A DNA stretch of 32,000 nucleotides from Candidatus Electronema aureum (GCA_004284765.1 NQJD01000016.1:1-32000), one strand, 5' to 3'. Positions 3,701 to 29,629 are shown, counted from the first letter of the stretch. The notes: generated from the sequence alone by a model not told the origin. Numbers and translations are program-made.

Positions 3701-6700
3701 GGTGGTTGGGTTATAAGTTCCTACAGTAGCTCTAATGTTTGGGTTGGTTCCATTAACACGGTCATAGTAGACCGTCAGGGTAATATTGCCCGTAATGGTC
3801 TGGGTGCTCGCAGCTACGGCTGAATAGAACCTGGCCACTTCATAATACGAAGCGTCGCGTGTAGCAAGTTCAATTGCCTCACCGGTATCACCAGCGACCG
3901 GAACGGGCGAAGTGCTTGCAATTCGCCGTGTCCCATCGTTGGCAATCCCGGCAGTCTCGTTGCGAAAATAGTAATCTGTACAAACAGAACCAGTTTCGGA
4001 GATGCCCACATTCGCCGTGTCTGTCACTGAATCCGCATTTGCAGCAGTCAATGTGGCGGTGTTCACGGCTGGATTGCTGGTGCCTATGAAAGGATTGCTG
4101 GCTTGCGCGGTGACGGTCACTGAGGCTGTTGCATCCACTGCCAAATCGCCGATGGTCCACGTCACAGTGCCGTTAGATCCCACCGCTGGCGCAGAACTGG
4201 GTGAACCTGTGGCGCTGACGTAGGTAAATCCATTCGGCAACGGATCAGTCAGAGTTACTCCGGTGGCAGCCGCTGTGCCTATGTTCCGATAGGCCAAGGT
4301 ATAAGTTATGTTTCCGCTAGGATTGACCGTGGCTGCGCTGGAGGTTTTCTCCAGCACAAGCACCGGCCTTGGGGCATTAATATAAACCGAGGCCGTAGTG
4401 CTGGCCGGATCAGTCTTGTTGCTGTCTATCGTGACGGTGTTGACGCTGTTTGCCGGGCCGCTGTAAGGAGTATCTACCGTGACGCTGTAGGAAACAGTGT
4501 ACGGCCCTTCGCCTGCATAGAGACCAGCACGGTTCCACGTCAGGGTACGGGTAACGCTGTCGTAGGCGCATCCGTCACTGCAACTGCCGAAAGTGAGACC
4601 AGCAGGCAAAATGTCAGTGATGACCACACTGCTGACATCTACGGTGGAGTCGTTGGAATAGCGGATGGTGTAGTTTATTGTTTCGCCCGGCGCACGGGTG
4701 AAATTGTCCGGGGTCTTGCTGATGGTCAGCCGGGGTGCTCCGACATTAATGGTCACTGGCGGGCTGACTATCGGACCATAGCTGGTTGCAGCATTGGCGG
4801 TGTTGGTGTAGTTGCCCACCACAGAGCTGGCGATGGCAACGAATGTCAGAGACAGGCTGCTGTCGGGGGCTATGCTTAATGGATTATTGTTATTACTCCA
4901 AGAAAGTATTTGCCCAGTCTCGCTTGGTTCACTATCATCAAAATCGCCAGTCGTGCTGTTAGGCTTATAGCTGAATCCCGGAGGCAAGGTGTCTTGAACT
5001 GTTGTGACCGTGATGGGCGATGGGTTTTTCAACGGATTTGTAACAGTCAGGGTGAAAGTGACTTCTCCGCCTACAGAAACTTCACTGACAGACGCTGTTT
5101 TTGTAATAACCGGCTCTACACCACAGACGTTCACAGAAAGCTCGGTGCCTGTGGTGGCGATTTTGGTGCCGGTCTCGTCGGGATTGCCCCACCAGTCTTC
5201 TTTTTCGTCAGGCGTTGCGGAGCTGTCATGCTGCGCGTCGTAAATGGCCTCTTGACCGTCGAGCCATCCAACCACGCCGCTGGGCTGTTCCCATTGCTTG
5301 AGGTCGCCGTTCCAGACCCAGCCGTTGGAATACACCTTGGCGGTGGGAGAATTTTCAGAAGGCGTGTAGCCCGCCAAATAGGAAAAAGTGCGGTTGGCCA
5401 CCGGCGCATTGGGAACGTCGTCATCCACCTTCGCCGGATCATCCACCGCTTGAACACCGATCAGGTAGGCACCTTTGAGCAGGCCGGAGGAATCCCAGTT
5501 CGCCTGCCACGTGTTGAGCGTGCCAGCTTTCTGTGTGCCGGTGGCGGCGTATGTCCACTCGCCTCCTGTCTCATCCGCCGCGCCGTTACCGTTCACATCA
5601 TGCCAGTAGTAGAAATCGACACTGGCGATGGATGGCTCAACCACCCCGCTGTTGTTATTCACATACAAGGTGTCCTGCACTCTGGCGGTGAGCTTGGTGG
5701 TGGTGCTCGACGCGCAGTTGGTGGAGCCTTCAGCTAATACTTCGGAAACGATGGGCTGGGCGTAGGGTTCGTCCCGGTTGAAGGAAAGATAATCGCCAAA
5801 CGGGGCTGGTTGGTTGGGGTCAGCAAGCCAAGTGCGGTTGAGGGCGCAGTCTTTCTGCAAAGGATTGTTTAAGCTGTTCGCTGTGCAGAACAGCATGGAA
5901 ATCGGCGTGTTACGGGTGATCGTCGGGCCGCCGTGCGCACTGGCATCCAGCATCTTGATCGGAATTTGATAATCCACAAAATACTCGGTGCAGCTATTGG
6001 CGGAAACTTTGATGGCGCGGGTTGTGCCGAAATCGTAGAAAACTTCAGCCGCTCCATTGGGCCAAGAAGTGTCAGGCGCGTTGCTGTTGTGATAATTAAG
6101 AAGGACACCGCTTGGATCTGCCACAGCAGCAGGATTATGGCCCAGCAGAAAAATGTTAGGATCGTCCACGTAGCTGATTGATTGTGTGGGCATCTTGCCG
6201 TAGATGCCTGCAACGGTGTCAATAGCGGTAGCCGGGCCACCGGAAGAGCCGTTGAGGTGGGCGGCCAAGTCGCGGTAGCCGGTACCGTCAATATCAAAGA
6301 ATACGGTCCAAAGGCCGGATTTCCACGGGTCGGTGCTGCCGTAGCTGCCGCCTTTATCATAAGAATGAGCAATCTGTTCAACACGCCAGCGAAAAAAAAG
6401 GACATCTTCCGACCCATCCGCCGCTGCCCCTTTTCTCATGCTGTAATAGATGCTGGGCAGATTCTTGTCAATGCACGAGGAAGCAATATTGACGTAGTTT
6501 TGAGGCGAGGTGCCGCCGTTGGAGGGATCCTGCACACGCGGGTCGTTTGCTCCAGTCTGGAAGCGGGTGTAAGGCTTCCAGTCGCCGCAGCTAGTGCCGC
6601 AGTTGAGCGGATTGGTTGGTTCGCTGGGCCAAGCGGCAACAGGGAAATGCAGCGCGGTGTTTGCTGTTGTGGGTGGATAGGGATCCGCCTGCGCCGCTGA

Positions 6701-6793
6701 AAATGGCATCGCCGCAGTCAGCATCGCCGCAGCAACGGCAAGACGAACTATAAAACTTCGGCCCGCTGAATAGTTTCTTCTTAATTTTTTCAT
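1..6793 (-). CDS. Giant secreted adhesin-like surface protein (N-terminus complete, C-terminus beyond window; at least 2264 codons)
   Basis: ATG at 6793-6791 is preceded by GAGGAG. Hand translation of the reverse complement stays open to position 1, in a frame that no track ORF occupies. The Sec signal is MKKLRRNYSAGRSFIVRLAVAAAMLTAAMPFSAAQA|DP. An unassigned domain of about 520 aa follows (about 5116-6685). Then come 8 DUF11-type 'conserved repeat domain' units (about 1400-5115), with signatures such as VTLTDPLPNGFTYVS, VTVTDNFPDEAWFTYGSC, VLVTDPIPTYTSYVP and VAVTDQLPPGFTYKAGS. Two SdrD-B/Cna-B-like units follow (about 766-1385), e.g. GTVWSDANATGTLDSGELGYPAVTVKLY...DGSYSFTGL. CshA-type repeats occupy 1-762. 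Confidence 0.85.
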   Translation of the reverse strand, partial: MKKLRRNYSAGRSFIVRLAVAAAMLTAAMPFSAAQADPYPPTTANTALHFPVAAWPSEPTNPLNCGTSCGDWKPYTRFQTGANDPRVQDPSNGGTSPQNYVNIASSCIDKNLPSIYYSMRKGAAADGSEDVLFFRWRVEQIAHSYDKGGSYGSTDPWKSGLWTVFFDIDGTGYRDLAAHLNGSSGGPATAIDTVAGIYGKMPTQSISYVDDPNIFLLGHNPAAVADPSGVLLNYHNSNAPDTSWPNGAAEVFYDFGTTRAIKVSANSCTEYFVDYQIPIKMLDASAHGGPTITRNTPISMLFCTANSLNNPLQKDCALNRTWLADPNQPAPFGDYLSFNRDEPYAQPIVSEVLAEGSTNCASSTTTKLTARVQDTLYVNNNSGVVEPSIASVDFYYWHDVNGNGAADETGGEWTYAATGTQKAGTLNTWQANWDSSGLLKGAYLIGVQAVDDPAKVDDDVPNAPVANRTFSYLAGYTPSENSPTAKVYSNGWVWNGDLKQWEQPSGVVGWLDGQEAIYDAQHDSSATPDEKEDWWGNPDETGTKIATTGTELSVNVCGVEPVITKTASVSEVSVGGEVTFTLTVTNPLKNPSPITVTTVQDTLPPGFSYKPNSTTGDFDDSEPSETGQILSWSNNNNPLSIAPDSSLSLTFVAIASSVVGNYTNTANAATSYGPIVSPPVTINVGAPRLTISKTPDNFTRAPGETINYTIRYSNDSTVDVSSVVITDILPAGLTFGSCSDGCAYDSVTRTLTWNRAGLYAGEGPYTVSYSVTVDTPYSGPANSVNTVTIDSNKTDPASTTASVYINAPRPVLVLEKTSSAATVNPSGNITYTLAYRNIGTAAATGVTLTDPLPNGFTYVSATGSPSSAPAVGSNGTVTWTIGDLAVDATASVTVTAQASNPFIGTSNPAVNTATLTAANADSVTDTANVGISETGSVCTDYYFRNETAGIANDGTRRIASTSPVPVAGDTGEAIELATRDASYYEVARFYSAVAASTQTITGNITLTVYYDRVNGTNPNIRATVGTYNPTTGIFTAIGTSPSVAAANKSSFVDLTVTNASTTLPSGHMIRWVLEAQSTSRRIALEWDGNTTSPIDSTVQLALSKSNVCISNPKLALEKEVNTPSIAKNGMGRQLTYTLKYANTSSATAVSSPSISDNLPAGTTYSSCSVGSSHFTGCSHSGGVVTFTGASVAASGTGSVTITVNVDDDLTGKTSLVNNATFSATAATPASASATTTVDTRQPDVRIFKSANKTLLTVGDTVTYTLMAVNSGTLDATGVTVTDNFPDEAWFTYGSCSTGAGTCSQTAGVLTWNIGPLAAGATKTATFTMTVQAGAPNGVTEKDNLATGIYGGGGTGTATSNTVTVAISTNPNLALSKTVDKTASSPGDTLTYTLTLVNNGSGAATGVLVTDPIPTYTSYVPASVTTNQGTASFDPVGNRVRFDLGDVNGGTTVTMSFKVLVNSTMPAGATDVPNTATASASNHGSRQATASSTVTAAPLLTIQKSGATSLAYPSATLTAAANGTTLFVSSTAAFEVGQYIKVGSTTARIVSLSSKSLTVDAAITASSGTNVFGSATYSLIYQNTGNADASNVVVTDTLPAELEYFSSSNSGTVSGQDVTWNIGTLTAGASGTVQVTVFPTGTGTVTNTAKIDSSETTEVSNSLNINIGGLSVTKSTSTAVRSVTAPDNVASYTITVGNSTAAAIAGVAVTDQLPPGFTYKAGSTGGTAGAGEPTGSAIPVWTITVPATGSVTITFQADIAAGTSPGTYDNEVGLIKAGVGIIPFDPTSTTVENVTVLGAGTAVLQGTIYHDQNTSDGGINLVDTPLAGVLVNVLASNGLYYTAYTDDNGFYQLVLPAGSTTVSVSTPDGYVLTSGVDKNNNATLTLVSGATTVHNVGYVPATNTGSISGTVWSDANATGTLDSGELGYPAVTVKLYAPGTVIGTNEPLAVILSGPDGSYSFTGLPDSADGDDYQVLVMPPVGTLLTNAPNPKNAAVSGGGDVTGVDFGLGDPPVAADDSSTGNQPGNMTLSVTANDSDPNNDLDVGTVDLDPATPGRQTSLAVSGEGDWTVDDLGNVTFTPEAGFTGDPTSIPYTVSDSTGLVSNQAMITIDYVPKAVDDSDAYTPGVAKTVAVLDNDTTGDAIVPATVSIVGGTDTNSDGTLDSLTVSSEGVWTVNASGQIVFTPESGFTGNPTPIQYTGKDAQGNVSNQATVSLTADPLPVAVDDSDAYTPGVAKTVAVLDNDTTGDAIVPATVSIVGGTDTN

Positions 6794-6909
6794 GACGGTC
6801 TCCTCAGTATCTCGACAGGATGCACCTTGCCGATCCTGCATTGTACCACAATGTTCTTTTTGCATTCTTTTCCATTATTACCTGCTAACAATATTGATTC
6901 CCTTTTAAA

Positions 6910-6938
6910 ATTATATATTTTTACAGTGAAAACAGCAA
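6910..6938 (-). promoter_or_regulatory. Candidate sigma70 promoter of the giant adhesin gene
   Basis: On the minus strand: TTGCTG (6938-6933), a 17-nt spacer, then TATAAT (6915-6910). This implies a 5' UTR of about 110 nt before the ATG at 6793. Confidence 0.5.
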
Positions 6939-6962
6939 GGGGAAAATGCTTTTCTTTTGTTA

Positions 6963-6971
6963 CCCCCCCCC
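6963..6971. repeat. C9 (G9 on the adhesin strand) homopolymer tract, 24 nt upstream of the candidate -35
   Basis: Counted directly: ...tttgttaCCCCCCCCCataacg... Confidence 0.9.
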
Positions 6972-6977
6972 ATAACG

Positions 6978-7013
6978 TAACAATGCAAAATAATAAATTA
7001 TTTTGCATTGTTA
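6978..7013. promoter_or_regulatory. 36-bp perfect AT-rich palindrome (17-bp arms, 2-nt centre); candidate operator
   Basis: TAACAATGCAAAATAAT-AA-ATTATTTTGCATTGTTA. It lies upstream of the adhesin promoter and 90 nt downstream of the CDF stop. Confidence 0.5.
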
Positions 7014-7102
7014 ATCATCGGCTACGTAAGTGAATACAGCAGATTTTGTGGTATCTAAACACTGAGTTCAGCAACGCAATATTGTCAGGAGAATAATTCC
7101 AG

Positions 7103-9130: not shown

Positions 9131-10291
9131 ATGCAGCAATCTGTTGCTGATTTATACCATCGCTCGGCGGCGGTGGTTGATTTATCTTGCATCACGCATA
9201 ACCTGAACGAGGTGCGAAGAAAAGTTCCCGGACGCAAGATCATCGCCATGATTAAGGCCAATGCCTACGGCCACGGATTGACGCGGGTAGGTGCGCATTT
9301 AGCGGCGGAAGGCGTGGATTACCTCGGCACCGCTTTTGTCGAAGAAGCCTTAGAACTGCGCAAGGCAGGCATCACCATTCCGATCATTACTTCCGGGCCA
9401 TTCTCCAAATTTCAGATTGGCCTGTTTATTGAGAATCAAATTGATTTTACTGTCGCCTCAGTTGATGCCCTCCATTTAATCAGCGAATCAGCCGCCTTTT
9501 ATAAAAAGCGGGTCAATGTTCATTTGAAGATAGACACCGGCATGATGCGGATTGGCATCCGGCATTCCAATGCTGACCAGCTTTTTGCTGCTGCGCTGAA
9601 GGTAGAAAAGCAGGTCAATGTGGTGTCGATTTTCTCCCATTTCGCCAATGCAGATAGTGAAGACCTCAGCTTTGCCCGCCTTCAGCTCGAACGCTTCTTA
9701 GAGGCTGCTCATTTTTATGACAAGCACAATCTGCCCAAGCCACTACTGCAAATCGCCAATTCCGCCGCCATCCTGCGAATGCCGGAAAGTCTGCTTGACA
9801 TGGTCAGGCCAGGGATTATGCTGTATGGCTATCATCCTTCGCAGTGTTGCAAGGCCGAGGCGAAGCTGCTTCCTGCTCTGTCGCTGCGGGCCAAGGCGAT
9901 GTATTTCAAAGTGATCCTCGAAGACAGCACGGTGGGCTACGGCAGGACATGGACAGCATCAGAAAATTGCCGGGCCGTCACTCTGCCGATAGGCTACGGC
10001 GACGGCTATTCGCGGGGTTTGTCGAATAAGGGACAGGTGCTGCTACGCGGCAAGCGATATCCAGTGGTCGGCACGGTCTGTATGGATCAAATCGTGGTCT
10101 GCATCAGCGATGGCGAGGCGTACAACGGCGAGGAGGTCATCCTCATCGGCAGGCAGGGCGAGGAAACAATCACGGCAGATGAGATTGCCGGGCAGCTTGG
10201 CACGATCAGCTATGAGGTGCTGACGGGCATCAGCCAGCGGGTGCCGAGGATTTTTATAGATAAAAAGCGAGGACAAAATAATGGAATCTGA
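9131..10291 (+). CDS. alr: Alanine racemase
   Basis: 386 aa. It has the PLP-lysine motif AMIKANAYGHG and a C-terminal ...GYGDGYSR...VCMDQ... region typical of Alr. Confidence 0.9.
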   Translation: MQQSVADLYHRSAAVVDLSCITHNLNEVRRKVPGRKIIAMIKANAYGHGLTRVGAHLAAEGVDYLGTAFVEEALELRKAGITIPIITSGPFSKFQIGLFIENQIDFTVASVDALHLISESAAFYKKRVNVHLKIDTGMMRIGIRHSNADQLFAAALKVEKQVNVVSIFSHFANADSEDLSFARLQLERFLEAAHFYDKHNLPKPLLQIANSAAILRMPESLLDMVRPGIMLYGYHPSQCCKAEAKLLPALSLRAKAMYFKVILEDSTVGYGRTWTASENCRAVTLPIGYGDGYSRGLSNKGQVLLRGKRYPVVGTVCMDQIVVCISDGEAYNGEEVILIGRQGEETITADEIAGQLGTISYEVLTGISQRVPRIFIDKKRGQNNGI

Positions 10292-11396
10292 AATTCACAT
10301 ACATCCAGATGCCGCTAAAAATATCAATAAAAGAGCGAATGAAATTCTATCGCTTGTACACGAAGTCCAACCAGTGAAATGCACAGAAAATTCTTCTTTC
10401 AAGTCTGAGAGAGTCATTTGTCATGATTTAGATGAACATGAATACACCGTAGATTACGAAGAAAGGATAGATTTAAAAGATGCTGAAAGGAAATTTATCG
10501 AATTCTCTTTCTATATAGGAGGGAGAAAGTTTTGCCTTGATAAAGATCATTACCATTTAGTTGCAGCTCTTTCAAGTCAAATAATATCATGTTTTTGCAA
10601 TAAAATTAGCAAAAAAATATCCATACAGCTTATATATAATTGGATTAAATTAAACTACGCAACTAATTATAGAAATATTATTTTTGATAGATACCTCGAA
10701 GAGGAAGCGAGAAGAAATATACGCGATATCACATGTTACATTCCAATAGCCAATCTTGAGATTGAAGAATCTTTTTTCGTTGGAAAACATGAACTGCGAC
10801 CATTATCAGAGATGGTAATAAATGAATGGGCAGAAAAATTATCGAGCAAGGAAAAAAATGATTTTTCTAACGATACAGCGTCGTTAATAGAAGATATTAG
10901 GCGTGAATGGCAAGGTCTTGCGGTTGTCGTATGCAAATACAATTCCGATGAATACCATGCTCATGCTTTGGCACGAGAAGAGGCAAGCAAGATTATTTCT
11001 ATTCTTGCGATATTTTTGCGAGAGATAACAATACCTAACATAAAAATATCATTGGGGCGATCAGAAGGAAATGATTTCATATCACGCGCAACATCTATTT
11101 CTCTGGCAGATAATAGGTTGACAATATATAAAGATTTTGAAAACAGGATGACATCAGTTCCATATCATAGAATAGATAAAAAATATATTAACTTATTGAA
11201 TGACCTTTGCTTTGAAAAAATATCCTGTCTTCTGGCTAAAGAAGAAAAGAGTTTAAATAAATTTCAGGAAAGAACGCTTGCTTCTCTGTTTATGTATTCC
11301 AAGTCTGCGTTTACCTCGGAACCAACCGAGAAGATAGTTTATACATTGACATCATTAGAAATAATACTTCTAAAAAACGACAGCGAACCAATTTAG
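10281..11396 (+). CDS. N-terminal part (about 366 aa) of an AT-rich HEPN-domain protein; the frame is interrupted, see next feature
   Basis: The ATG overlaps the last 11 nt of alr, with GAGGA 8 nt upstream. The region is strongly AT-rich relative to its flanks. The frame ends at TAG 11394, 16 nt after an A6 tract (11372-11377). The sequence ...EKIVYTLTSLEIILLK resembles the first HEPN helix. Confidence 0.7.
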   Translation: MESEIHIHPDAAKNINKRANEILSLVHEVQPVKCTENSSFKSERVICHDLDEHEYTVDYEERIDLKDAERKFIEFSFYIGGRKFCLDKDHYHLVAALSSQIISCFCNKISKKISIQLIYNWIKLNYATNYRNIIFDRYLEEEARRNIRDITCYIPIANLEIEESFFVGKHELRPLSEMVINEWAEKLSSKEKNDFSNDTASLIEDIRREWQGLAVVVCKYNSDEYHAHALAREEASKIISILAIFLREITIPNIKISLGRSEGNDFISRATSISLADNRLTIYKDFENRMTSVPYHRIDKKYINLLNDLCFEKISCLLAKEEKSLNKFQERTLASLFMYSKSAFTSEPTEKIVYTLTSLEIILLKNDSEPI

Positions 11397-20252: not shown

Positions 20253-21977
20253 ATGTCCACCCCGCCTAAAAAACACGACTGTCCCATACTCAATCTCATC
20301 AAAGGCTGTGGCTGCCAGAGCAACACCACGTCCTCATCATGCTGTGGTGATGACCACAATCACCCGCATGACCATGTAACAAGTTCTGGTAATCAAGAGA
20401 AACACAGTCATTCTCACGATCATGCGCATGACAGCAGCCATACGCACAGTCATGAAACAGCCGCTGCGTCAACGCCTCCTGTTACTGTGCCCGACGAAGC
20501 TACTGAGAATGACGCAACACCCGCTATCAGCGCAGAGCAAGAAAAGGAGCTGCTGGCAGACTTGCAAGACTTCGATAACAATCCAGCGGAATTCATGGAT
20601 CGCTCACCGCGCAAACGGGTGGAGCAGGCAGGTGGCACGGACACGAATCTTCCTTTCTTTGACCAAGCTGCTATCGACAACAAAGCCTATGTTGGTGCCC
20701 GTGATGAGCTGCGGACCAGTTTTGAGGCTAATGATGCAGACCATGCCACTCGTGCTGCCTTTACTTCTAACGATCTGGCGCAGAACTTGGTTGACAGCTA
20801 CAGCTACACCAGTTTGCAAAGTATGCAGGCGAACAACCTGATGAACGTTCGTCTGAATAACCAGCCCTGGTCAGACGACTACTGGGCGATCTGCCGAGGT
20901 ATCATTGGCAAACGCTATGCTGATCCCGGCTTTCCTAAGTCCTCTGATTGGAACACGTGCCATAACTACGTATCGAGCCGCCCCGCTGCCTCTGTTCTTA
21001 CGAGCGGTAGCACGACGGCGATCAACAATCTCTCGCCTTCGGAAAAATACGACATCTTAGTCGGCGACAGCAACTACACCCTAACAAAAAAAATGTGGGC
21101 TGAAGGGGCTAAATTCGGAGGCAACGTCGCTCCTTGGATGGGCATTTGCCACGGTTGGGCACCTGCCAGCTACATGTTACCTCGTCCGACCAAGGCCATC
21201 ACTGTGCTGGCTGCGGATGGACACACCCAGCTGACCTTTTATCCTTCAGACATCAAAGGACTTGCCTCCCTGCTCTGGGCTAATGCCAGCCCTGGAACTA
21301 AGTTCATCGGGGGCCGCTGCAATGTTGAGAATCCGGCCAGAGATATCAATGGTCGCCTGATTGAGGCCGCTTGTTTTGACACTAACCCTGGTACGTGGCA
21401 TCTCGCCGTAGTCAACCAGATCGGTGTGTCCAAACGCAGCATGGTGCTGGATGTAACCTTTGATTATGAGGTTTGGAATCAGCCAGTGCTGGGCTATAGG
21501 TACCTCCATTTTAACCCGCAAAGCATGACCTACCAAAGCTCGCTGGCCGCCGCTGCTGTGTCGAGAGCTAACTACACCAGAGACAAGTTCTCCTCATACC
21601 ACAGCAACCAGACTGCCAGCATTGTTGGCATTAAAATGTTTGTATTGTACATGGTGGAGACCACTCCCAGCCACAACTCACCAGATAGTTCCGGCAAGGA
21701 CGTGATTAATGAGGTTGAATATATGTACGACTTGGAGCTTGATTTTTCCGGCAAAATCATCGGCGGCGAATGGCGGAGTATTAAGCATCCTGACTTCCTC
21801 TGGACTCCGACCAAAAGCAGCAGAGCAAGAACTAACTATGAACCCAGCGGAACGTGGCAGAGCGGTCAGTCTGTGCCTTCCTCGTGGAGATCAGCGGCTG
21901 TTTCCGCCTCAAACGCAGCCAAACCCGCACCTTTGGCTGCAATTGTCGAGCAATTGATCAGTCTGTCCAACAGCTAA
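20253..21977 (+). CDS. Protein with a Cys/His-rich metal-binding-like N-terminal tail and a C-terminal transglutaminase/papain-like Cys-His domain (resembles the GP42 'transglutaminase elicitor' family)
   Basis: Strong SD: AGGAGGaatcATG. Residues 1-70 contain 5 Cys (CPILNLIKGCGC...SCCG) and 12 His in HxH arrays (HNHPHDH, HSHSHDHAHDSSHTHSH). An acidic linker follows. The domain carries SPSEKYDILVGD, APWMGICHGWAPASY (Cys299 at 21147-21149), NPGTWHLAVVNQIG and EVWNQPV. Confidence 0.8.
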   Translation: MSTPPKKHDCPILNLIKGCGCQSNTTSSSCCGDDHNHPHDHVTSSGNQEKHSHSHDHAHDSSHTHSHETAAASTPPVTVPDEATENDATPAISAEQEKELLADLQDFDNNPAEFMDRSPRKRVEQAGGTDTNLPFFDQAAIDNKAYVGARDELRTSFEANDADHATRAAFTSNDLAQNLVDSYSYTSLQSMQANNLMNVRLNNQPWSDDYWAICRGIIGKRYADPGFPKSSDWNTCHNYVSSRPAASVLTSGSTTAINNLSPSEKYDILVGDSNYTLTKKMWAEGAKFGGNVAPWMGICHGWAPASYMLPRPTKAITVLAADGHTQLTFYPSDIKGLASLLWANASPGTKFIGGRCNVENPARDINGRLIEAACFDTNPGTWHLAVVNQIGVSKRSMVLDVTFDYEVWNQPVLGYRYLHFNPQSMTYQSSLAAAAVSRANYTRDKFSSYHSNQTASIVGIKMFVLYMVETTPSHNSPDSSGKDVINEVEYMYDLELDFSGKIIGGEWRSIKHPDFLWTPTKSSRARTNYEPSGTWQSGQSVPSSWRSAAVSASNAAKPAPLAAIVEQLISLSNS

Positions 21978-21993
21978 CCGTGTAATAAAAAAA

Positions 21994-22032
21994 AGCCTGT
22001 GCGACTCAAGTTGCACAGGCTTGCTCTTTCTT
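21994..22032 (+). terminator. Rho-independent terminator after the 20253-21977 gene
   Basis: AGCCTGTGC(gac-tcaa-gtt)GCACAGGCT followed by tgctctttctt, and preceded by an A8 run. Confidence 0.7.
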
Positions 22033-22059
22033 ATGATTAATTTCAGGCACAGGTGCTGG

Positions 22060-23070
22060 ATGATGTCTAATAAGCAGCATTACGCTCTTGTCATTGGTAT
22101 TAATGACTATCCTCTGAGCGGACTTGAGCCGCTTAAAGGGCCAGTCAACGATGCCAATGATTTTTATTCTTGGCTCTGCAACCCAGAAGGTGGCAATCTG
22201 CCCACAAAAAATATTCGGCGCATAGTCTCTTCCGATTACCCTGCGCACACTGCCTGCCCAACTCCAAACCAAGTGGAAGCCCTGTTTGAGCCGTTTATTT
22301 CCGATTATTATGACGGAAAAAAAGAGGGCGAACGACTTTACATTTTTGCAGCAGGCCACGGTTTCGGCGATCCTAACGATATGGGCAAGACCGCCCTGTA
22401 TGCGGCCAATGTCAAAAATATGTTTCCGTGGCACATCGCGGTGACAGAGTACGCCGAATGGCTACGCCGCCATGCGGTCTTTAATGAAATTGTCCTGATT
22501 ATGGACTGCTGCCGCACTATTAATGTGCCACATCAAATTAGAGAACCACAGTATGTGACCCTTCAAGGCAATGTGAATGCTGATAAAGTAAAATATTTTT
22601 ACGCCTTTGCCGTGGGAAGCGGCAGGAAAGCCCGTGAGCGACTGTTTGAAGATGGCAAAAACGCAGGTATCTTCACTAAAGTGCTTTTGGATGCTTTGAG
22701 AAACGCTCGACCAGTGCAGGGTGTAGTTACAGGACAAGCACTAAAAAACCATATTCATAACAGCATTTCCCGGTTTGCAGGCGACCATGAAGCCGAGCCG
22801 CCGGAAATCCGCCTTGATTCTAACCAAGACATCAGCTTCTTTAAGCGTAAGTCAGCTGGCACGGTGCCGGTCATGGTCAATATTCAGTCCTACAGTGACA
22901 CGGATATGCTAATTCTCTATGACGGTTTGTCTCAAAAAATCAGGCAGGAAGCGGCAACAGCTTCAGTGATGACGCTGGATTTAGAGCCAGGGATATACAA
23001 AGTCAAAATCGGCAACACGGGCCGTGAGAAACTTTTCGAGGTGCCGAACAATGAGCAAATCACCGTCTGA
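22060..23070 (+). CDS. Caspase-like (peptidase C14) cysteine protease with a C-terminal beta-sandwich-like module
   Basis: HYALVIGINDY...NDANDF...LYIFAAGHGF (His at 22357-22359)...IVLIMDCCRT (Cys at 22507-22512) is the classical caspase His/Cys dyad context. The start is uncertain: ATG at 22060, 22063 or 22033, all downstream of the terminator. The C-terminal ~70 aa carry LDLEPGIYKVKIG. Confidence 0.85.
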   Translation: MMSNKQHYALVIGINDYPLSGLEPLKGPVNDANDFYSWLCNPEGGNLPTKNIRRIVSSDYPAHTACPTPNQVEALFEPFISDYYDGKKEGERLYIFAAGHGFGDPNDMGKTALYAANVKNMFPWHIAVTEYAEWLRRHAVFNEIVLIMDCCRTINVPHQIREPQYVTLQGNVNADKVKYFYAFAVGSGRKARERLFEDGKNAGIFTKVLLDALRNARPVQGVVTGQALKNHIHNSISRFAGDHEAEPPEIRLDSNQDISFFKRKSAGTVPVMVNIQSYSDTDMLILYDGLSQKIRQEAATASVMTLDLEPGIYKVKIGNTGREKLFEVPNNEQITV

Positions 23071-24184
23071 GCAGATTGCCCTGACTGTCAGGGCTGCGGA
23101 CAACATGACCGAGGTTTTTCTTGCGGACAGTCGCTTTGAGCTGATTGCCAACGGCATCGGCAGGACAGAGGCTACTGTTGCGCCGGGTCTGTACAAGGCC
23201 CGCTTCCGGGTTGGCCAAGTGCAAACCGACAGCCTGATTGAGGTAGAGACTGGCGGAGCAAGCAAGATTTTTGATGGTACGGCAGTGCAATTTGCTTCGC
23301 CAGTGCCAATGCCGCAAACGCTGACATACCGGCAAGCCCAAGCTGAGGCTGCGCAACAGCTGTCCCGCGTAATTAACCTGAAACAAGGCACCGGCAGTCA
23401 GCTCTTTCTTTTCCTCCGGGGATTGACCGCAGAAGCCTCCCGCCCTTGGGTAGGCGTGTCGCTGCATGACCTTAGTGGTAAGCAATTCGCAGAAGCAGGG
23501 CAGGGTACCTGTGATACAGCTAACTGCTTTTGTGGCCTGAACATCGAGCTTGACCCAGGCACGTACCGTTTGCGGGTGGAGGAAGAGCCGGGCGAAATCT
23601 ACGAGATGTTTATAGTCACGCTGGCGGGCTGGCAGACGCAGGTCTTTGCCTTAGCAGAAACCTCGTGGCAGCCGGGTGTGCAGGCAGTACGAGCCGCGCT
23701 GCCGGATGCCGCTGTGCTGATGGCAGAAATCGACAAGGGTTTTGATCCGGCTAACCCAGCGGTGCGCCAAACTGAGTTGCTTCGGCTTGGTCTGATGCAC
23801 GGACGCAAGATTCTAACGGAAATAGGGCTGAAAAATCTGTTAGCTGGAACATTAAATCCGATGAATGCGGTTTTTATCGCTCATCTGCTGGCTCGGCGGG
23901 AGGATGAAGTTCTTCAGGCGTTGGCAGTGGATTTGGTCGGACACATCGACAGCAGCTTGGCCGCGCATCCTGATTTGCGAGCCGCCTTACTCGTACCGCA
24001 GTTCGTTACCAGCAACGAAACGCCGCCTATCTTTACCGCGCCGCCTATGCTCAACAGCAGTTGGCAGCTCATCACGCAGGCTGTTGACAAGGAAAAGGCA
24101 GTAATTCCATCTGGCTCACTCAACGAGCAGATCAAGGCCGGGGTGTTGAACACCGCGCTCTGGTTGTTGCATCGACTACCATAA
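23051..24184 (+). CDS. Uncharacterised partner of the caspase-like protease: two beta-sandwich-like modules plus a C-terminal helical region of about 190 aa
   Basis: The ATG at 23051 overlaps the protease stop (23068-23070) by 20 nt. The modules carry TVAPGLYKARFRVG and ELDPGTYRLRVEEE, paralleling LEPGIYKVKIG in the protease. I recognise no motif in the C-terminal part. Confidence 0.75.
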   Translation: MSKSPSEQIALTVRAADNMTEVFLADSRFELIANGIGRTEATVAPGLYKARFRVGQVQTDSLIEVETGGASKIFDGTAVQFASPVPMPQTLTYRQAQAEAAQQLSRVINLKQGTGSQLFLFLRGLTAEASRPWVGVSLHDLSGKQFAEAGQGTCDTANCFCGLNIELDPGTYRLRVEEEPGEIYEMFIVTLAGWQTQVFALAETSWQPGVQAVRAALPDAAVLMAEIDKGFDPANPAVRQTELLRLGLMHGRKILTEIGLKNLLAGTLNPMNAVFIAHLLARREDEVLQALAVDLVGHIDSSLAAHPDLRAALLVPQFVTSNETPPIFTAPPMLNSSWQLITQAVDKEKAVIPSGSLNEQIKAGVLNTALWLLHRLP

Positions 24185-24268
24185 GCATGGGCTTTCTTTG
24201 AAACATCAGTAGCTTTATGGTATAAGGCCCTGAGTAGCTTAGTAATGCATCCTGTTTTTTCAATAGAC

Positions 24269-24386
24269 ATAGGAGTTACGCAGTTGAAATGAAAAGTTCA
24301 ACCATTACAGCAAGTTGTCTTTTTATCGTATAAATCGCCAGTTGAATAAAATCAACGGGTTGGCAATCGAACTGCGTAACTCCTAT
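24269..24386. repeat. 118-bp element bounded by a perfect 17-bp inverted repeat, with two internal hairpins
   Basis: ATAGGAGTTACGCAGTT (24269-24285) pairs with AACTGCGTAACTCCTAT (24370-24386). Internal hairpins: GTTGAA-N8-TTCAAC and CCAGTTGA-ataaaa-TCAACGGG. The motif CAGTTGAA occurs twice. Confidence 0.6.
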
Positions 24387-24590
24387 CAAATACGAAACAG
24401 TGCATAGCCTCAGTGAGGAAGAGGTGCAGCAACATCTCCTGCGCAACGCCCTCATCGCGATCAGCCATGCGACCCGGTAAACGAAGGTGCGGGTCTTACC
24501 GTTGCCTGCCCCTGTGATCACCAAAGCCGGGCAGCCGGAATGAGTGACGGCTGATTCGGGTCACTGAGATCAAACTCAAGGCACGGAGAA
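24387..24590 (-). pseudogene. Decayed N-terminal fragment of a UvrD/Rep/PcrA-like helicase
   Basis: The minus strand reads ...PESAVTHSGCPALVITGAGNGKTRTFVYRVAWLIA (Walker A GxGxGKT; compare UvrD ...AGAGSGKTRVLVHRIAWL). It is preceded by an in-frame TGA, with DLSDPNQ in another frame. Downstream similarity (EGVAQEMLL..F.TEA) appears only in a shifted frame. The fragment stops at the inverted-repeat element. Confidence 0.5.
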
Positions 24591-25192: not shown

Positions 25193-25984
25193 TTACTTAA
25201 CTACCTTGGCATCTTCGACGATTGCGTCATACTTGTAGCCCGCACCGAAATCCTTGGCCTTACCCAAAGTTCCTTCAATCACCACGACAGTATCCTTTGC
25301 TGCTGTTTCTGAAGTGGTAACAACGAGATCGTGGGTGTTCTTCATCGGATCACCGCTACCGTCTTGAAGATGAATCCAGTTTTTGCCCATGATCTGCGGG
25401 GTGAACTTGACTACTTTGCCCCGCACTCGCACTTTCTGCCCATTTAACTTTTCAGCTTCGGCAAAGCATTGCTCAACCGTGCGACCAGTCTCACCCTCAG
25501 CTTTTTCGACTTTTACGTCGCTCGCTGGAACAACAGCCCGTGAAGAACCACCGGACATAGCTGCCAGCGTGGCCTCGTCAACAGGCTTGTCCATTGCTCC
25601 GGCTAACTTTGGTGTACCGCCTTCAACGGCAGGAGCAGCAGTGGTGGTGTCAACTAAACCCGGTGAAAAGATGATGGTCTCAAACTGTTTATTCAGAGCC
25701 TTAGACTCAAAGGCTTTCATTACCATACCCGGTTGAACAGCAACTTCTTGGCCCACTGTAACCTTGCTCTCTGGGATAGCTACCCACGTCTTGTCCTGCC
25801 CGTCCTCAACCAGTAGATAGGTGTAACCTGCCCCGGACATACTTTCTAACACCTTGCCTTTGATGGCTTTCTGTACTGGAGCAGCAGCGGCTTCAGTGGC
25901 AGCTGGCGCGATTTCTTCAGCCATCGCAGGATGAGTCAGCAACAGGGTCAGCAGCAAGGCGGCAGGAATGTATCGAGTGTTCAT
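25193..25984 (-). CDS. Exported protein with two OB-fold-like modules
   Basis: The preferred start is the ATG at 25984 (AGGAG 8 nt upstream); the track ORF extends to 26086. Signal peptide: MNTRYIPAALLLTLLLTHPAMA|EE. Modules: GKVLESMSGAGYTYLLVEDG...VAIPE... and VRVRGKVVKFTPQIMGKNWIHLQDGSG. Confidence 0.7.
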   Translation of the reverse strand: MNTRYIPAALLLTLLLTHPAMAEEIAPAATEAAAAPVQKAIKGKVLESMSGAGYTYLLVEDGQDKTWVAIPESKVTVGQEVAVQPGMVMKAFESKALNKQFETIIFSPGLVDTTTAAPAVEGGTPKLAGAMDKPVDEATLAAMSGGSSRAVVPASDVKVEKAEGETGRTVEQCFAEAEKLNGQKVRVRGKVVKFTPQIMGKNWIHLQDGSGDPMKNTHDLVVTTSETAAKDTVVVIEGTLGKAKDFGAGYKYDAIVEDAKVVK

Positions 25985-26228
25985 TGGCATGTCTCCTTGA
26001 AAGGGAATGGATACTAAGAAGCAGGGCATTGCGGCCCTTATTTTCGCACACCTTGTATTTATAGAAAATTGCCCGCACTCTGTCAACAGAACCCGGTTGT
26101 AATTGCTCTTACAGCTTCTTCTTTTTCAGGCGAGAGAACGGAATAGACAGCCTTCTGCCTTGTTTTTTCCGGTAAATCTTGTATAACCGTCTCGCAACTG
26201 CCAGAAACATTATAGAAGGAATTTCTCT

Positions 26229-26786
26229 ATGCCGCGTCTTTTCGTCCTCCATCTTTTTCTTACTCTCCTGTCTATCGTCTTCCCGACTGCCTCAAGTTTT
26301 GCGCAGATGAATACCATGCCTCAGTATGATAGATTTTCTTTTATGCGGGTCATGGTTTGGGTGGAAAGCGTCAACACGTTGCAAAATCCGCATATCGGTA
26401 GATTTGGACTGCATCTATTTGCCAAGGATTCGTTCTCCAATAGATATTTAGTTCATATCTGCCCACAATGGTATGCTGACAATCATCCTGATCAATTCAC
26501 CTTTAAGCCGGGCGAGCAGTTGATCATCTCTGGTTCGCGTTTTGCCACTGGTCTTACGGAGAACAATATATTTGCCGCAACCATCATTAACTGTTCTCGA
26601 AATAATTTGGAACTGAACGTGCGAGACCCTTACACTGGCAATGCCTTATGGCACAATCAACCTGATAATCTCTTGGAGAAAATTCAAGAAGTACAAAGGA
26701 GATTGTTCTCAAAGCGATCACAGGCCATACAAAAGAATATAAAAGAAAATTTCCCTGTCGGTAAACCTTCTTTGGTCTCTCAGTAA
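26229..26786 (+). CDS. Hypothetical exported protein
   Basis: 185 aa. Signal peptide: MPRLFVLHLFLTLLSIVFPTASSFA|Q. No motif recognised. Confidence 0.6.
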   Translation: MPRLFVLHLFLTLLSIVFPTASSFAQMNTMPQYDRFSFMRVMVWVESVNTLQNPHIGRFGLHLFAKDSFSNRYLVHICPQWYADNHPDQFTFKPGEQLIISGSRFATGLTENNIFAATIINCSRNNLELNVRDPYTGNALWHNQPDNLLEKIQEVQRRLFSKRSQAIQKNIKENFPVGKPSLVSQ

Positions 26787-27055: not shown

Positions 27056-27568
27056 ATGAGACCTTGGAATCTCTTGGCTCTATTCGTAGTTTCAGTTGCT
27101 CTGCTTACAGGTGGTTGCTCTTCAAAAAAGACCAAACCTGCGCCACAGCCCAAGCCATCAGCTGTCTCTGCTGTTAAGGCCAATACGGAGTTGAAGAGCA
27201 CCAGCGAGGAGCTAAAGGGTACTTCGTGGAAAGTGAGCCGCTACAACGACGGACAGGGCGGCATGACCGATGTTATCGTTGGTAAAGGTCGGACACTGAC
27301 TGCATTATTCGGCTACAGCAAGCGATTCAGCGGTTCAGCGGGCTGCAATAATTATGTAGCTCATTATACCTATTCTCCTACTGAAAAAACCTTCAGCTTT
27401 GAAATGATCTCGATGACTACCAAACAGTGCGAAACAGATGTAATCATGGAACAAGAAGGCCAGTTCATGGCCGCGTTATATACAGCAGTTTCTTTCCGTA
27501 TTATAGGAAATACTCTGACTTTGAATGATGATAGTGGCAATCCAGCTGTAATCTTGACCAAAAATTGA
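27056..27568 (+). CDS. META-domain (HslJ-like) lipoprotein
   Basis: 170 aa. It has the lipobox LLTGGC, and the META signatures LKGTSWKV and FSGSAGCNNYVAHY. Confidence 0.8.
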   Translation: MRPWNLLALFVVSVALLTGGCSSKKTKPAPQPKPSAVSAVKANTELKSTSEELKGTSWKVSRYNDGQGGMTDVIVGKGRTLTALFGYSKRFSGSAGCNNYVAHYTYSPTEKTFSFEMISMTTKQCETDVIMEQEGQFMAALYTAVSFRIIGNTLTLNDDSGNPAVILTKN

Positions 27569-27569
27569 T

Positions 27570-27593
27570 CTTCGCAGGCAAGCGAAGTTTTTT
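27570..27593 (+). terminator. Rho-independent terminator
   Basis: CTTCGC-aggcaa-GCGAAG followed by TTTTTT. Confidence 0.6.
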
Positions 27594-27622
27594 ATTAATA
27601 AAAACCCAAATAGGAGAACAAA

Positions 27623-28378
27623 ATGAAAGTACAACACGTTGTTGCAGCAATGATGATGTTTGCTACGTTGGTTCTATCGGCAGGATTTGCGCCAGCAGCT
27701 TCATTGAACGGTACCAGCTGGCTTCTGAAAACACTGAATGGGCAGCCGCTTAAATCAAACCTCCAGCTAACGCTGAATATTGAGAACGGCAAAGCATTTG
27801 GTGATGCCGGTTGCAATAATTACTCCGGTAAGTACACAGAGGGAGGCGGAAACTCGTTACATATTGAGAAAATATACAGAACCTTAGTGATGTGTACGCC
27901 GGATCAAATCATGACACAAGAGTCGCAGTTTGTCAGCGCATTAAAGGATGCTACCATATATCACCTTGTTGGAAAAATGATGACACTGAAGAATAAGAAT
28001 GGTGTGTCTTTGGCTGTCTTTAATTCTCAGAGCCAAGTGATCAAGGGCACGTCATGGAAGGTAGGATCAATTGAAGGAAGTAATGTCATTGATGGCTCAA
28101 AGTTAACTGCAACCTTCGGCACTAACGGTACAGTTAATGGATCGGCAGGCTGTAACAGCTACTCTGGCTCTTACACTTCGTCGATTTCTGGCAAAAAAAT
28201 TAACATTAACAAACTCGGATTAACGAGGATGAGCTGTCATAAACCGGTGGGTGTAATGATGCAGGAAAATAAATTTGTTGAAATGATGGAAGCAGCAAAG
28301 ACCTACCGGATTGAAGCCGATAGATTGACAATAAGCAAGGCTGATGGATCGAGAGCTGTCGTCTTGTACAAGAAGTGA
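27623..28378 (+). CDS. Exported protein with two META domains
   Basis: 251 aa with a signal peptide. Two copies of the LxGTSW...G(D/S)AGCN(N/S)YSG(K/S)Y pattern. Confidence 0.8.
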   Translation: MKVQHVVAAMMMFATLVLSAGFAPAASLNGTSWLLKTLNGQPLKSNLQLTLNIENGKAFGDAGCNNYSGKYTEGGGNSLHIEKIYRTLVMCTPDQIMTQESQFVSALKDATIYHLVGKMMTLKNKNGVSLAVFNSQSQVIKGTSWKVGSIEGSNVIDGSKLTATFGTNGTVNGSAGCNSYSGSYTSSISGKKININKLGLTRMSCHKPVGVMMQENKFVEMMEAAKTYRIEADRLTISKADGSRAVVLYKK

Positions 28379-28453: not shown

Positions 28454-29629
28454 TCACTCCAGCTTATACCCGCATTTCAGCGTGGCATGGAACGTACAGC
28501 TCTGCTTGGGGTCCCACGAGGGGCCTCTTTCATTTTCACTGGCGATGTTGTACAGCTCTACATCTTTGATCACCGCTTTGAGACCAGATTTTTGTTTATT
28601 CTTCTTTTCCGCCCAAGCTTCGCATCGTTCCCAAGCCTGATTATTGATCCGCGATGTTCCGCAGTTCGTAACACCACTTCCTTGAATAGAAAATAATTTT
28701 GACCAGCGCATTCCATCGCTGTCCACAAATTCCTTTTCAATAGGTGCTGTTTTCTTTTTTGTTTCCGCTTTGGCTGATTCATCCAAAGTGTATCGACATT
28801 TTATACCAGCATGAAAAGAACATCCTGCGGTAGAATCTGCCGGATTTTTATTCTCAGTCGCAATATTGTACAGTTCAACACCCTTGATCACCGGTTTTCC
28901 TGAAAGCCCTTTTTTCTTTTTCGCCCAATTGTTGCATGTTTTCAACGCCTCAGTGGTAATGCGGGGGATTTCGCAGTTGGAAGTAGTGTCACCTGTGCCT
29001 TTGATAGAAATTAGCCCAGAACGCTTAAACGTACTTCCTGTGGCTCCAACAGAGAAAACGGTACCTTCTTTCGCTTTGTCGTTCTGCTCAACAGGATTGG
29101 CATCAGTATTTTTCGGCAGAGACGGAGCAGCTATAACCACCGTCTGTATTGCAGCAGCAGCTTTTCCGGTAGGTTTGGCAGAGGAAACAAGTTTTTCTCC
29201 TGCGCCTTTGTCCTCACATTTTCCTAATAGAACTTCATCGTCTTTAACAGGCGTGCCACAGCCTACTGCATCCGTTTCTTTTGGCTTCAATAACCCAGTC
29301 AGCTTGAGTTTTACGCCTTTCTCTGCACTGTAACCGCATTTTACATTAGCATGAAAAGTGCAGTTTAACTTTGGATCCCAATAAGTTCCTTTTTCATTTT
29401 CAGTCGCAACATTATATAGTTCTATATCCTTAATAACAATTCCTTTGTTTTGCTTTGCAAAAGATTCACATTGATCCCAAGCCTCGTTGGTTATACGCGT
29501 TTTGCCGCAGTTGGTTGCGCCTGCGCCTTTAATATAGATCACATCTGACCATTTTAGTTCTTCGCTGAAGCCCTTTAGTGGAAAAATAAAATTCACCAAA
29601 AAACATGCTGCAATCATTATCTTCTTCAT
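28454..29629 (-). CDS. Exported protein with three copies of an unrecognised ~85-aa four-cysteine repeat
   Basis: 391 aa. Signal peptide: MKKIMIAACFLVNFIFPLKGFS. Repeat signature: W(S)xxxxI(K/Q)G(A/S/T)GxTNCGxxRIxNxAWxxCExxAxK...IKD(I/V)ELYN(V/I)AxENExGxxWDPKxxCTFHAxxKCGY. Copies lie at roughly aa 26-112, 205-292 and 306-391. Confidence 0.75.
   Translation of the reverse strand: MKKIMIAACFLVNFIFPLKGFSEELKWSDVIYIKGAGATNCGKTRITNEAWDQCESFAKQNKGIVIKDIELYNVATENEKGTYWDPKLNCTFHANVKCGYSAEKGVKLKLTGLLKPKETDAVGCGTPVKDDEVLLGKCEDKGAGEKLVSSAKPTGKAAAAIQTVVIAAPSLPKNTDANPVEQNDKAKEGTVFSVGATGSTFKRSGLISIKGTGDTTSNCEIPRITTEALKTCNNWAKKKKGLSGKPVIKGVELYNIATENKNPADSTAGCSFHAGIKCRYTLDESAKAETKKKTAPIEKEFVDSDGMRWSKLFSIQGSGVTNCGTSRINNQAWERCEAWAEKKNKQKSGLKAVIKDVELYNIASENERGPSWDPKQSCTFHATLKCGYKLE

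Follow-up and report, generated by a model that had tools for sequence, protein, structure and literature searches.

A caspase-like protease and its overlapping partner gene as the candidate core of a mobile cassette, with a distinct form in cable bacteria

In the window studied here, the whole 32,000-nucleotide stretch from Candidatus Electronema aureum, a freshwater cable bacterium (GCA_004284765.1 NQJD01000016.1:1-32000; all positions are counted on it), the gene of a caspase-like protease is overlapped by that of a partner protein which belongs to no described family. I consider it about an even call that a caspase cassette exists which is widespread and moves horizontally, and that this pair forms its constant core. 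That estimate covers the whole reading, namely a mobile core, a partner that acts as regulator, cleavage of an effector encoded beside it, and a cable-bacterial locus that is a derived form of the cassette.

The constancy of the pair is observed in 41 partner-anchored loci, collected from one genome per GTDB species and supplemented by contig look-ups. In every one of them (41/41) a caspase of the same subfamily is located directly upstream of the partner gene, on the same strand and overlapping it. The pairwise divergences of caspase and partner are correlated (Mantel r 0.92, reached by 0 of 2000 permutations), and in two relatives (P0220 and P0227) the caspase domain and the partner are fused in one chain. 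A first-pass annotation of this DNA, made from the sequence alone, had proposed the two genes as a module and had named conservation of their neighbourhood across genomes as a check; adjacency, correlated divergence and fusion all agree with the module. Among the cable bacteria, every one of the 18 species representatives found, from both genera, has the pair, and so have at least 14 other lineages, with single members in Crocosphaera, Chlorobium, Thiocystis, Holophagae, Planctomycetota, Gemmatimonadales, Desulfuromonadales, Acidimicrobiaceae, Verrucomicrobia, Mariprofundus, Myxococcales, Thiobacillaceae, Longimicrobium, Ectothiorhodospiraceae and unclassified Gammaproteobacteria. An exhaustive profile search brings the partner family to 2,614 representatives at 50% identity, and a check for carriage by phages gave no match in 50,697 phage records. 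A fourth conserved gene was not found, the flanks of the non-cable loci being unrelated between lineages.

In the window, the caspase open reading frame (ORF) spans 22060-23070 on the plus strand (336 amino acids from the ATG at 22060, with the stop at 23068-23070), and the partner ORF spans 23051-24184 on the same strand (ATG at 23051, 377 amino acids, 100% identical to the hypothetical protein CDV28_11615), so that the two overlap by 20 nucleotides, just as they had been described initially. Overlaps of 14-23 nucleotides are kept in most homologous loci, and a Shine-Dalgarno-like GAGGTG lies inside the caspase gene, 7 nucleotides ahead of the partner ATG. From this arrangement the second gene appears to be translationally coupled to the first.

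23038-23070, plus strand: translational-coupling region, with the Shine-Dalgarno-like GAGGTG at 23038-23043, the partner ATG at 23051 and the caspase stop at 23068-23070

Outside the cable bacteria, the pair is mostly accompanied by a third gene. In most of these lineages a gene of about 490-530 amino acids, here called X, is located directly upstream, with only a few nucleotides between its end and the caspase start. Its product is an alpha/beta-fold serine hydrolase, with the motifs HxHGG, GHSTGA (the nucleophile elbow) and HGDFD and weak Abhydrolase_6 matches, and a plasmid copy is labelled 'alpha/beta hydrolase' in RefSeq. Two sites at which Arg or Lys is followed by Gly, Ser or Thr ([RK]-[GST]) are conserved in 18 of 18 X sequences, about 30-40 amino acids apart and upstream of the GHSTGA nucleophile. 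Searching from X revealed three-gene operons with overlapping ORFs in two cultured strains with complete genomes, Parasedimentitalea marina (CP033219, L125) and Marinicella sp. W31 (CP171822, L126), consisting of an alpha/beta-hydrolase of 497 amino acids, a caspase of 340-344 and a partner of 483-502, and these represent the ancestral three-gene form.

On rhizobial plasmids other genes take the place of X or accompany it. An S8 peptidase gene is located directly upstream of the caspase in M. huakuii, and a DNA/RNA non-specific endonuclease gene just downstream of the partner in S. mexicanum, while in M. onobrychidis the partner core forms the N-terminus of a 1,449-amino-acid PLD-like protein, with an X homologue upstream and a trypsin-like peptidase downstream. 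Insertion sequence (IS) or transposase genes adjoin two of these three cassettes. Other partner relatives end in TIR_2, astacin-like (zincin) or lectin-like domains. The neighbouring gene is swappable and belongs to the cassette, whether it is X, an S8 peptidase, an endonuclease, a fused TIR, PLD or zincin domain, or, as a candidate, the transglutaminase (TGase) of the cable bacteria; mobile conflict systems can usually be recognised by such a combination of an unchanging core and enzymatic neighbours that replace one another. The module proposed in the first-pass annotation stands as far as the pair is concerned, but not as a system of just two genes, as the swappable third gene (in the window, as a candidate, the TGase gene at 20253-21977) is part of it.

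Alternatively, the pair could resemble a toxin and its antidote, the caspase being toxic by broad proteolysis and the partner its stoichiometric inhibitor, with the neighbouring genes irrelevant. The tight overlap and the translational coupling are typical of toxin-antitoxin pairs, defensive caspases without effector have been reported, among them an E. coli homologue (PMC12642450) and a TIR-activated caspase-like protease (10.1101/2024.10.24.620036), and one Electronema locus (L008) has no TGase match in 7 kb upstream or in the approximately 3.7 kb available downstream. However, an enzyme-type gene recurs beside the pair, and the abutment of X on the caspase start, together with the conserved basic sites within X, argues that the neighbour is a substrate. 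I consider the toxin-antidote arrangement very unlikely, and return to the reading of the pair as a cassette core.

The protease consists of two domains (residue numbers count from the ATG at 22060):

22060-22845, plus strand: caspase (Peptidase C14) catalytic domain, recognised by Pfam, a PADLOC model, the AlphaFold2 (AF2) model and an invariant dyad
22852-23070, plus strand: beta-sandwich at the C-terminus of the protease (residues ~265-336), which carries the motif LEPGIYK and is followed by the stop; seven strands in the AF2 model, and related by hhalign to the first sandwich of the partner

The catalytic domain scores 33.6 bits (cutoff 21.4) against PF00656 Peptidase_C14 over residues 7-218, is also matched by the PADLOC 'caspase' model (E 9e-18), and stays far below the threshold of the NCBIfam model caspase_w_EACC1 (NF047832; 48.4 bits, cutoff 140). 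It carries the motifs FAAGHGF and MDCCRT, with the codon of His100 at 22357-22359 and those of Asp149-Cys150-Cys151 at 22504-22512. Across 29 homologues derived from the loci and 33 from databases, His100 (of GHGF) and Cys151 (of MDCC) never vary; Cys151, the second cysteine of MDCC, aligns with the cysteine of DACR or DSCR in the homologues, and Cys150 is not invariant. The AF2 model (predicted local distance difference test score, pLDDT, 90.9; predicted template-modelling score, pTM, 0.78) shows a caspase fold and, after it, a sandwich of seven strands (269-335). In a Foldseek search against the PDB it matches MALT1, metacaspases 9 and 4, Yca1 and caspases-3, -7, -8 and -9 (E 1e-12 to 1e-6), the best match being the caspase-Ig3 part of MALT1 (E 2.5e-12, about 13% identity). 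The earlier assignment to the C14 caspases with a His/Cys dyad is consequently well founded, except that the catalytic cysteine had been placed at position 150 rather than 151. The subfamily is small and uniform (about 335-370 amino acids), and the C-terminal sandwich is present in every member.

The arrangement Asp149-x-Cys151 resembles that of the metacaspases and of the paracaspase MALT1. In these enzymes the Asp ahead of the catalytic Cys lines the S1 pocket, and the Asp-x-Cys motif goes with Arg specificity. From this motif and the Arg/Lys sites in the hydrolase X, I infer a basic P1 specificity, that is, cleavage after Arg or Lys.

The 5' end of the caspase gene needs a correction. An in-frame ATG at 22033 opens a peptide with the consensus M-x-(x)-F-x-H-[RK]-C-[WLR], which is conserved across Electronema and Electrothrix and was not found in the non-cable caspase homologues. 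Because its codon changes are synonymous (ATT/ATC/ATA, CAC/CAT, TGC/TGT, AGG/AGA/CGA) and the indels downstream of it keep the frame, the gene probably starts at 22033 and encodes 345 amino acids, and not at the ATG at 22060 that had been chosen originally. A strong hairpin precedes this start, and other Electronema species have a strong hairpin of different sequence at the same position.

21993-22032, plus strand: terminator-like hairpin between the TGase and caspase genes, GC-rich with 13 base pairs (21993-22022) and a T-rich tail to 22032
22033-22059, plus strand: probable first codons of the caspase gene, with the in-frame ATG at 22033 and the conserved peptide MINFRHRCW

The upstream hairpin that had been reported as a terminator is real. 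That the pair forms its own transcription unit, which had been stated along with it, is unproven, as the T-tract ends at 22032, immediately before the probable start, so that a leader would not fit in between, and a sigma-70-like promoter was not detected. In Ca. Electrothrix aarhusensis MCF (L018:5936-7017) the caspase match is split between two frames (6029-6670 and 6643-7017), reflecting either a frameshift or an assembly error.

The partner comprises two beta-sandwiches and a helical domain:

23051-23290, plus strand: partner beta-sandwich 1 (residues ~5-80), with invariant P45, G46 and Y48
23372-23740, plus strand: partner beta-sandwich 2 (residues ~108-230), with invariant P169, G170, Y172 and W194
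23756-24184, plus strand: partner helical domain (residues ~236-377)

The invariant or nearly invariant residues of the helical domain are R239, R245, R252, P270, H278, D308, PP331-332, SW337-338 and W371-L372-x-x-R375. In the AF2 model (pLDDT 92.6, pTM 0.91) the sandwiches span 9-75 and 116-226, and the helical domain 236-364. As a candidate, a J-domain was considered from the letters 'HPD' at 306-308 and rejected, as only D308 is invariant in the 36-sequence alignment and the context does not fit.

The first-pass annotation had seen three paralogous modules in the protease C-terminus and the partner, and family alignments compared with hhalign confirm them. Caspase 265-336 is related to partner 5-80 (97.9% probability, E 3.5e-13) and to partner 108-206 (74%, E 2.8e-5), and the latter two regions are related to each other (83%, E 8.5e-6), while controls against the helical and caspase domains reach at most 2.1% probability; the AF2 models show a beta-sandwich fold at all three. 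In addition, tblastn joins the caspase C-terminus to the partner N-terminus in locus L030. Because this shared homology is genuine, it would be reasonable to expect that the partner docks on the protease by a homotypic contact between sandwiches.

Neither the partner alone nor a 36-sequence profile of it matched anything in Pfam, NCBIfam, PADLOC or the PDB sequences, apart from a sub-threshold hit to DUF7113, so that the partner, which had been left unassigned at first, indeed belongs to no family described there. Foldseek of its model against the PDB and BFVD gave generic tandem beta-sandwich matches only (template-modelling score < 0.2), with a general Ig- or prealbumin-like likeness that includes carboxypeptidase D domain II (E 0.011), and no match for the helical domain in either database. 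Some NCBI records label relatives 'Carboxypeptidase regulatory-like domain-containing'; the CarboxypepD_reg and PEGA Pfam models gave no match to the sandwiches at E<=1.

Most members of the partner family are 470-525 amino acids long and carry a C-terminal tail of about 110 amino acids, as in L003, L020, L122-L124, most of P0155-P0296 and the Crocosphaera partner, which retains it. The cable clade ends 2 residues past R375, and the whole clade has lost the tail. Where present, it consists of a helix L-[ST]-x-L-E-Q-x-I-L, a variable linker and a motif L-G-[VI]-P-x-x-[ST]-[VI]-x-x-A-x-x-x-L-x-x-K-L, and is helix-turn-helix-like; in a search against PDB profiles its matches to MarR-type regulators were not significant (E 0.2-1.2).

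These features bear on the model with which the first-pass annotation had tentatively explained the pair, in which the protease docks on the partner by its sandwich, cuts it, and frees the helical C-terminus as an effector. The homology of the sandwiches on which it builds is real, a released piece is plausible in those relatives whose partner ends in TIR, PLD or zincin domains, and the nearly invariant R375 is located just before the point where the tails begin. However, conserved Arg/Lys-Gly/Ser sites were sought in the partner and none were found, there is no flexible linker, and in the model the helical domain packs rigidly on sandwich 2 as one body. The helical domain showed no match to a known toxin or enzyme in the Pfam, PDB and BFVD searches, and the partner in the window has no tail to release. 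The helical region (about 140-190 amino acids) is the constant core of the family and not a detachable effector, the variable parts of the system being placed in neighbouring genes or fused behind it, and its release by the protease is unlikely. I therefore regard this model as improbable for the window, and prefer the partner as a constant component of the cassette core.

In the cable bacteria the place of X is taken by another enzyme.

20253-21977, plus strand: TGase-elicitor-like gene of 574 amino acids, the candidate effector (PF16683, E 9.5e-41, 140.2 bits with a cutoff of 25, residues 184-525)

Its catalytic motifs WMG(I/L)CHGW and HPDFLW are invariant across 10-31 homologues. In nearly all cable-bacterial loci the gene next to the caspase on its upstream side encodes a TGase, and downstream of the partner there is usually a second TGase paralogue; the association of TGase and pair is also seen in Crocosphaera and Thiocystis. 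Of 80 metagenome TGase loci, 12 carry the caspase, the partner or both. As none of these 12 carries X, the TGase and X look like alternative third components, and they are mutually exclusive with one exception, Thiocystis. The link of the TGase is weaker than that between caspase and partner.

The upstream TGase starts (window 20253-20530) with a conserved peptide, M-S-T-P-P-K-K-H-[ND]-C-[PF]-[IL]-L-[ND]-[LF]-[FI]-K-G, followed by a variable low-complexity linker which is His-rich in Electronema (HDHxHSHSHDHAHD...) and acidic or Pro-rich in Electrothrix; the downstream paralogue has neither peptide nor linker. An H-x-C motif is present in the N-terminal peptides of both TGase and caspase, which could serve as a shared docking or metal-binding tag. 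Six of the TGase loci without the pair (L056, L057, L059, L063, L073 and L087) share a giant neighbouring ORF of about 1,900 amino acids with an alpha/beta-hydrolase-like N-terminus (…ILVFIHGAASSTVGSFGKL…), and these may represent another TGase-linked system.

Taken as a form of the cassette, the cable-bacterial system would be a derived one, in which TGases replace the hydrolase, the partner is tail-less, and the whole is kept vertically in both genera. A different view of the same loci is that the system has been domesticated for cable-bacterial physiology, the pair processing or regulating the flanking TGases in the life of the multicellular filament, perhaps in protein cross-linking, in programmed 'ghost-cell' formation or in fragmentation of the filament, and not in defence against phages. 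The pair occurs in all of the cable-bacterial representatives, in conserved order with the TGases and in syntenic housekeeping surroundings, its cable forms are derived (with loss of the partner tail and gain of the Cys/His N-terminal peptides by caspase and upstream TGase), and a paper on ghost cells of cable bacteria (2025) mentions caspase-domain genes and describes their role as unstudied (PMC12163305). On the other hand, the same core is patchy across phyla and is found on plasmids by IS elements, together with nuclease, PLD and TIR effectors; such a distribution with toxic-type effectors points to an ancestry as conflict system. The downstream TGase paralogue, moreover, shows decay in E. 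nielsenii and is missing from E. aureum. The nearly universal syntenic conservation within the cable bacteria leaves a domesticated role open, which is the main rival reading and which I rate as rather unlikely.

For the preferred reading, a mobile cassette core that acts on an adjacent effector, the following mechanism is proposed. The partner would dock on the protease through the paralogous sandwiches, and probably regulates it or senses the trigger for it, a role that falls to STAND, vWA-MoxR or WD40 sensors in the described caspase-hydrolase modules. A trigger, phage or stress, would release the activity of the protease, and cleavage after Arg or Lys would convert the adjacent zymogen, here possibly the TGase, to a harmful enzyme, by which the cell would be killed or arrested. 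A cleavage of this kind is described for Lysobacter capsici, where LcCaspase cuts LcHydrolase at two Arg-Gly sites, Arg73 and Arg117, and the cut form kills cells (Evans et al. 2025 bioRxiv, PMC12642450). In a broader version, the pair would define a large protease-effector family in immunity or cell death (about 2,600 clusters at 50% identity) that is independent of nucleoside triphosphatases (NTPases), with a two-sandwich-plus-helical sensor and interchangeable effectors, of which the cable bacteria would have domesticated a tail-less TGase version that could be a switch for filament death or differentiation; this seems possible, though I would not call it probable.

Several observations weigh against the cassette reading. 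The locus is syntenic and nearly universal in the cable bacteria and has housekeeping surroundings, which is atypical for a defence system, and PADLOC gave no component matches apart from its generic caspase model. Of the 80 TGase-elicitor loci, 68 stand alone without the pair, and the terminator-like hairpin lies between the TGase and caspase genes, so that the TGase may be a mere neighbour. A conserved Arg/Lys-Gly site in an evident linker was sought in both the TGase and the partner and not found, the sites of the TGase occurring only within conserved domain segments, where they are uninformative. The docking of the sandwiches is something I infer from their homology. Finally, X (about 500 amino acids) is larger than LcHydrolase (about 300), and the two are compared by the layout of their sites; a profile search with X retrieved only relatives of about 490-530 amino acids, with no Lysobacter among the best 120 X homologues.

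The surroundings of the pair do not have the look of an accessory or conflict locus that had been attributed to them. Pfam identifies among the neighbours in the window an arginyl-tRNA synthetase (ArgRS), an alanine racemase, a TetR regulator with an RND efflux pump, an NT5C nucleotidase, META-domain proteins (two tandem genes, 27056-28378), a cysteine synthase and a serine acetyltransferase, and this housekeeping arrangement keeps its synteny throughout Electronema. With Ca. Electronema nielsenii (L006, 95% identity) the shared order breaks off at 24238, 54 nucleotides past the partner stop, where E. nielsenii continues with the second TGase paralogue, apparently frameshifted, which E. aureum does not have. 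The decayed DNA that had been noted downstream is confirmed in part. A perfect inverted repeat of 17 nucleotides is present (24269-24285/24370-24386), and the helicase remnant is short, the first 25 amino acids of a minus-strand ORF (24276-24524) matching the Walker-A region of UvrD/PcrA weakly (E 0.008). Four sizeable ORFs near the locus gave no significant Pfam match, namely 25193-26086 (minus strand), 26229-26786 (plus), 28454-29629 (minus) and 10281-11396 (plus); the first could encode a secreted protein, to judge by its hydrophobic N-terminus and a region rich in Ala and Pro.

The licensing of death effectors by a protease is becoming apparent as a major logic in bacterial immunity, and the caspase biology of eukaryotes offers parallels. 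The widespread version considered here has a constant second component outside Pfam, NCBIfam and PADLOC and no NTPase sensor, and the way in which the partner controls the caspase would add a new regulatory principle. For the centimetre-long multicellular filaments of cable bacteria, a conserved and intact caspase module with a lineage-specific set of effectors bears on the question of whether cells die by a programme, as ghost cells or in fragmentation. The literature searched contained nothing that links cable bacteria with transglutaminase, and a single sentence in PMC12163305 is the only mention of caspases in cable bacteria found there. As cultured carriers exist (Parasedimentitalea marina and Marinicella sp. 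W31, and also rhizobial plasmids), experiments are feasible.

Among known systems, the closest are the modules of a caspase with an alpha/beta-hydrolase, which were predicted as protease-effector modules by Kaur, Burroughs, Iyer and Aravind (2020 eLife, PMC7159879), who described the caspases of conflict systems as always accompanied by a neighbouring alpha/beta-hydrolase. With these modules and their experimental counterpart in Lysobacter (PMC12642450) published, the initial statement that the locus matches no known caspase system does not hold. Most relatives of the locus have, like them, an alpha/beta-hydrolase beside the caspase and a patchy, mobile-looking distribution, and the two sites of X at which a basic residue precedes Gly or Ser, ahead of the nucleophile, parallel R73-G and R117-G of LcHydrolase. 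Unlike them, the window has a TGase in the place of the hydrolase; no alpha/beta-hydrolase was found near the pair in a Pfam scan of nearby ORFs, X itself not having been searched directly against the window. The described modules also differ in their STAND, vWA-MoxR, WD40 or GTPase sensors, the two-sandwich-plus-helical partner being the only other constant component here, and neither the caspase nor the partner nor any flanking gene was found to have an NTPase or repeat sensor (STAND, vWA-MoxR, WD40).

The EACC1-caspases, the gasdermin-caspase and the TIR-caspase ('type IV Thoeris') systems likewise have a protease that licenses a death effector, and the caspase domain described here is weakly similar to the caspase_w_EACC1 and PADLOC 'caspase' models. 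The window, in contrast, has no EACC1, gasdermin or TIR gene. The absence of gasdermin, CHAT, NACHT and STAND genes nearby, which had been pointed out at the outset, agrees with the Pfam scans of the window ORFs, in which none was found; PADLOC and Pfam gave no match for the partner, whose two sandwiches and helical domain in the AF2 model are not gasdermin-like.

With MALT1, the protease shares a caspase domain directly followed by a beta-sandwich and the Asp-x-Cys motif. However, it is bacterial, has no death or Ig1-2 domains and shares only about 13% identity, and its sandwich is prealbumin- or CarboxypepD_reg-like, with a paralogue on a separate partner. The likeness is one of architecture, an analogy and not family membership; MALT1 offers an earlier example of a caspase domain under the control of a sandwich. 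The orthocaspases and type I metacaspases (C14B) have the His-Cys dyad, the p20-like fold, the Asp before the catalytic Cys and multicellular or filamentous hosts in common with it. In contrast to these, the present subfamily is small (about 335-370 amino acids) and always has the C-terminal sandwich and the partner gene; no orthocaspase with such an obligate partner is described.

The upstream gene in the window, finally, resembles the GP42-type transglutaminase of Phytophthora in its strong PF16683 match and in the Cys-containing WMGxCHGW, which is kept; it differs in being bacterial, in the lack of a signal peptide, and in the additional N-terminal Cys/His peptide and low-complexity linker. 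A linkage to a caspase cassette has not been described before for the TGase_elicitor family. The class as such, in which a caspase licenses the effector encoded beside it, is known; the features not described in the libraries and literature searched are the partner family, the lack of an NTPase sensor and the cable-bacterial variant with a TGase elicitor.

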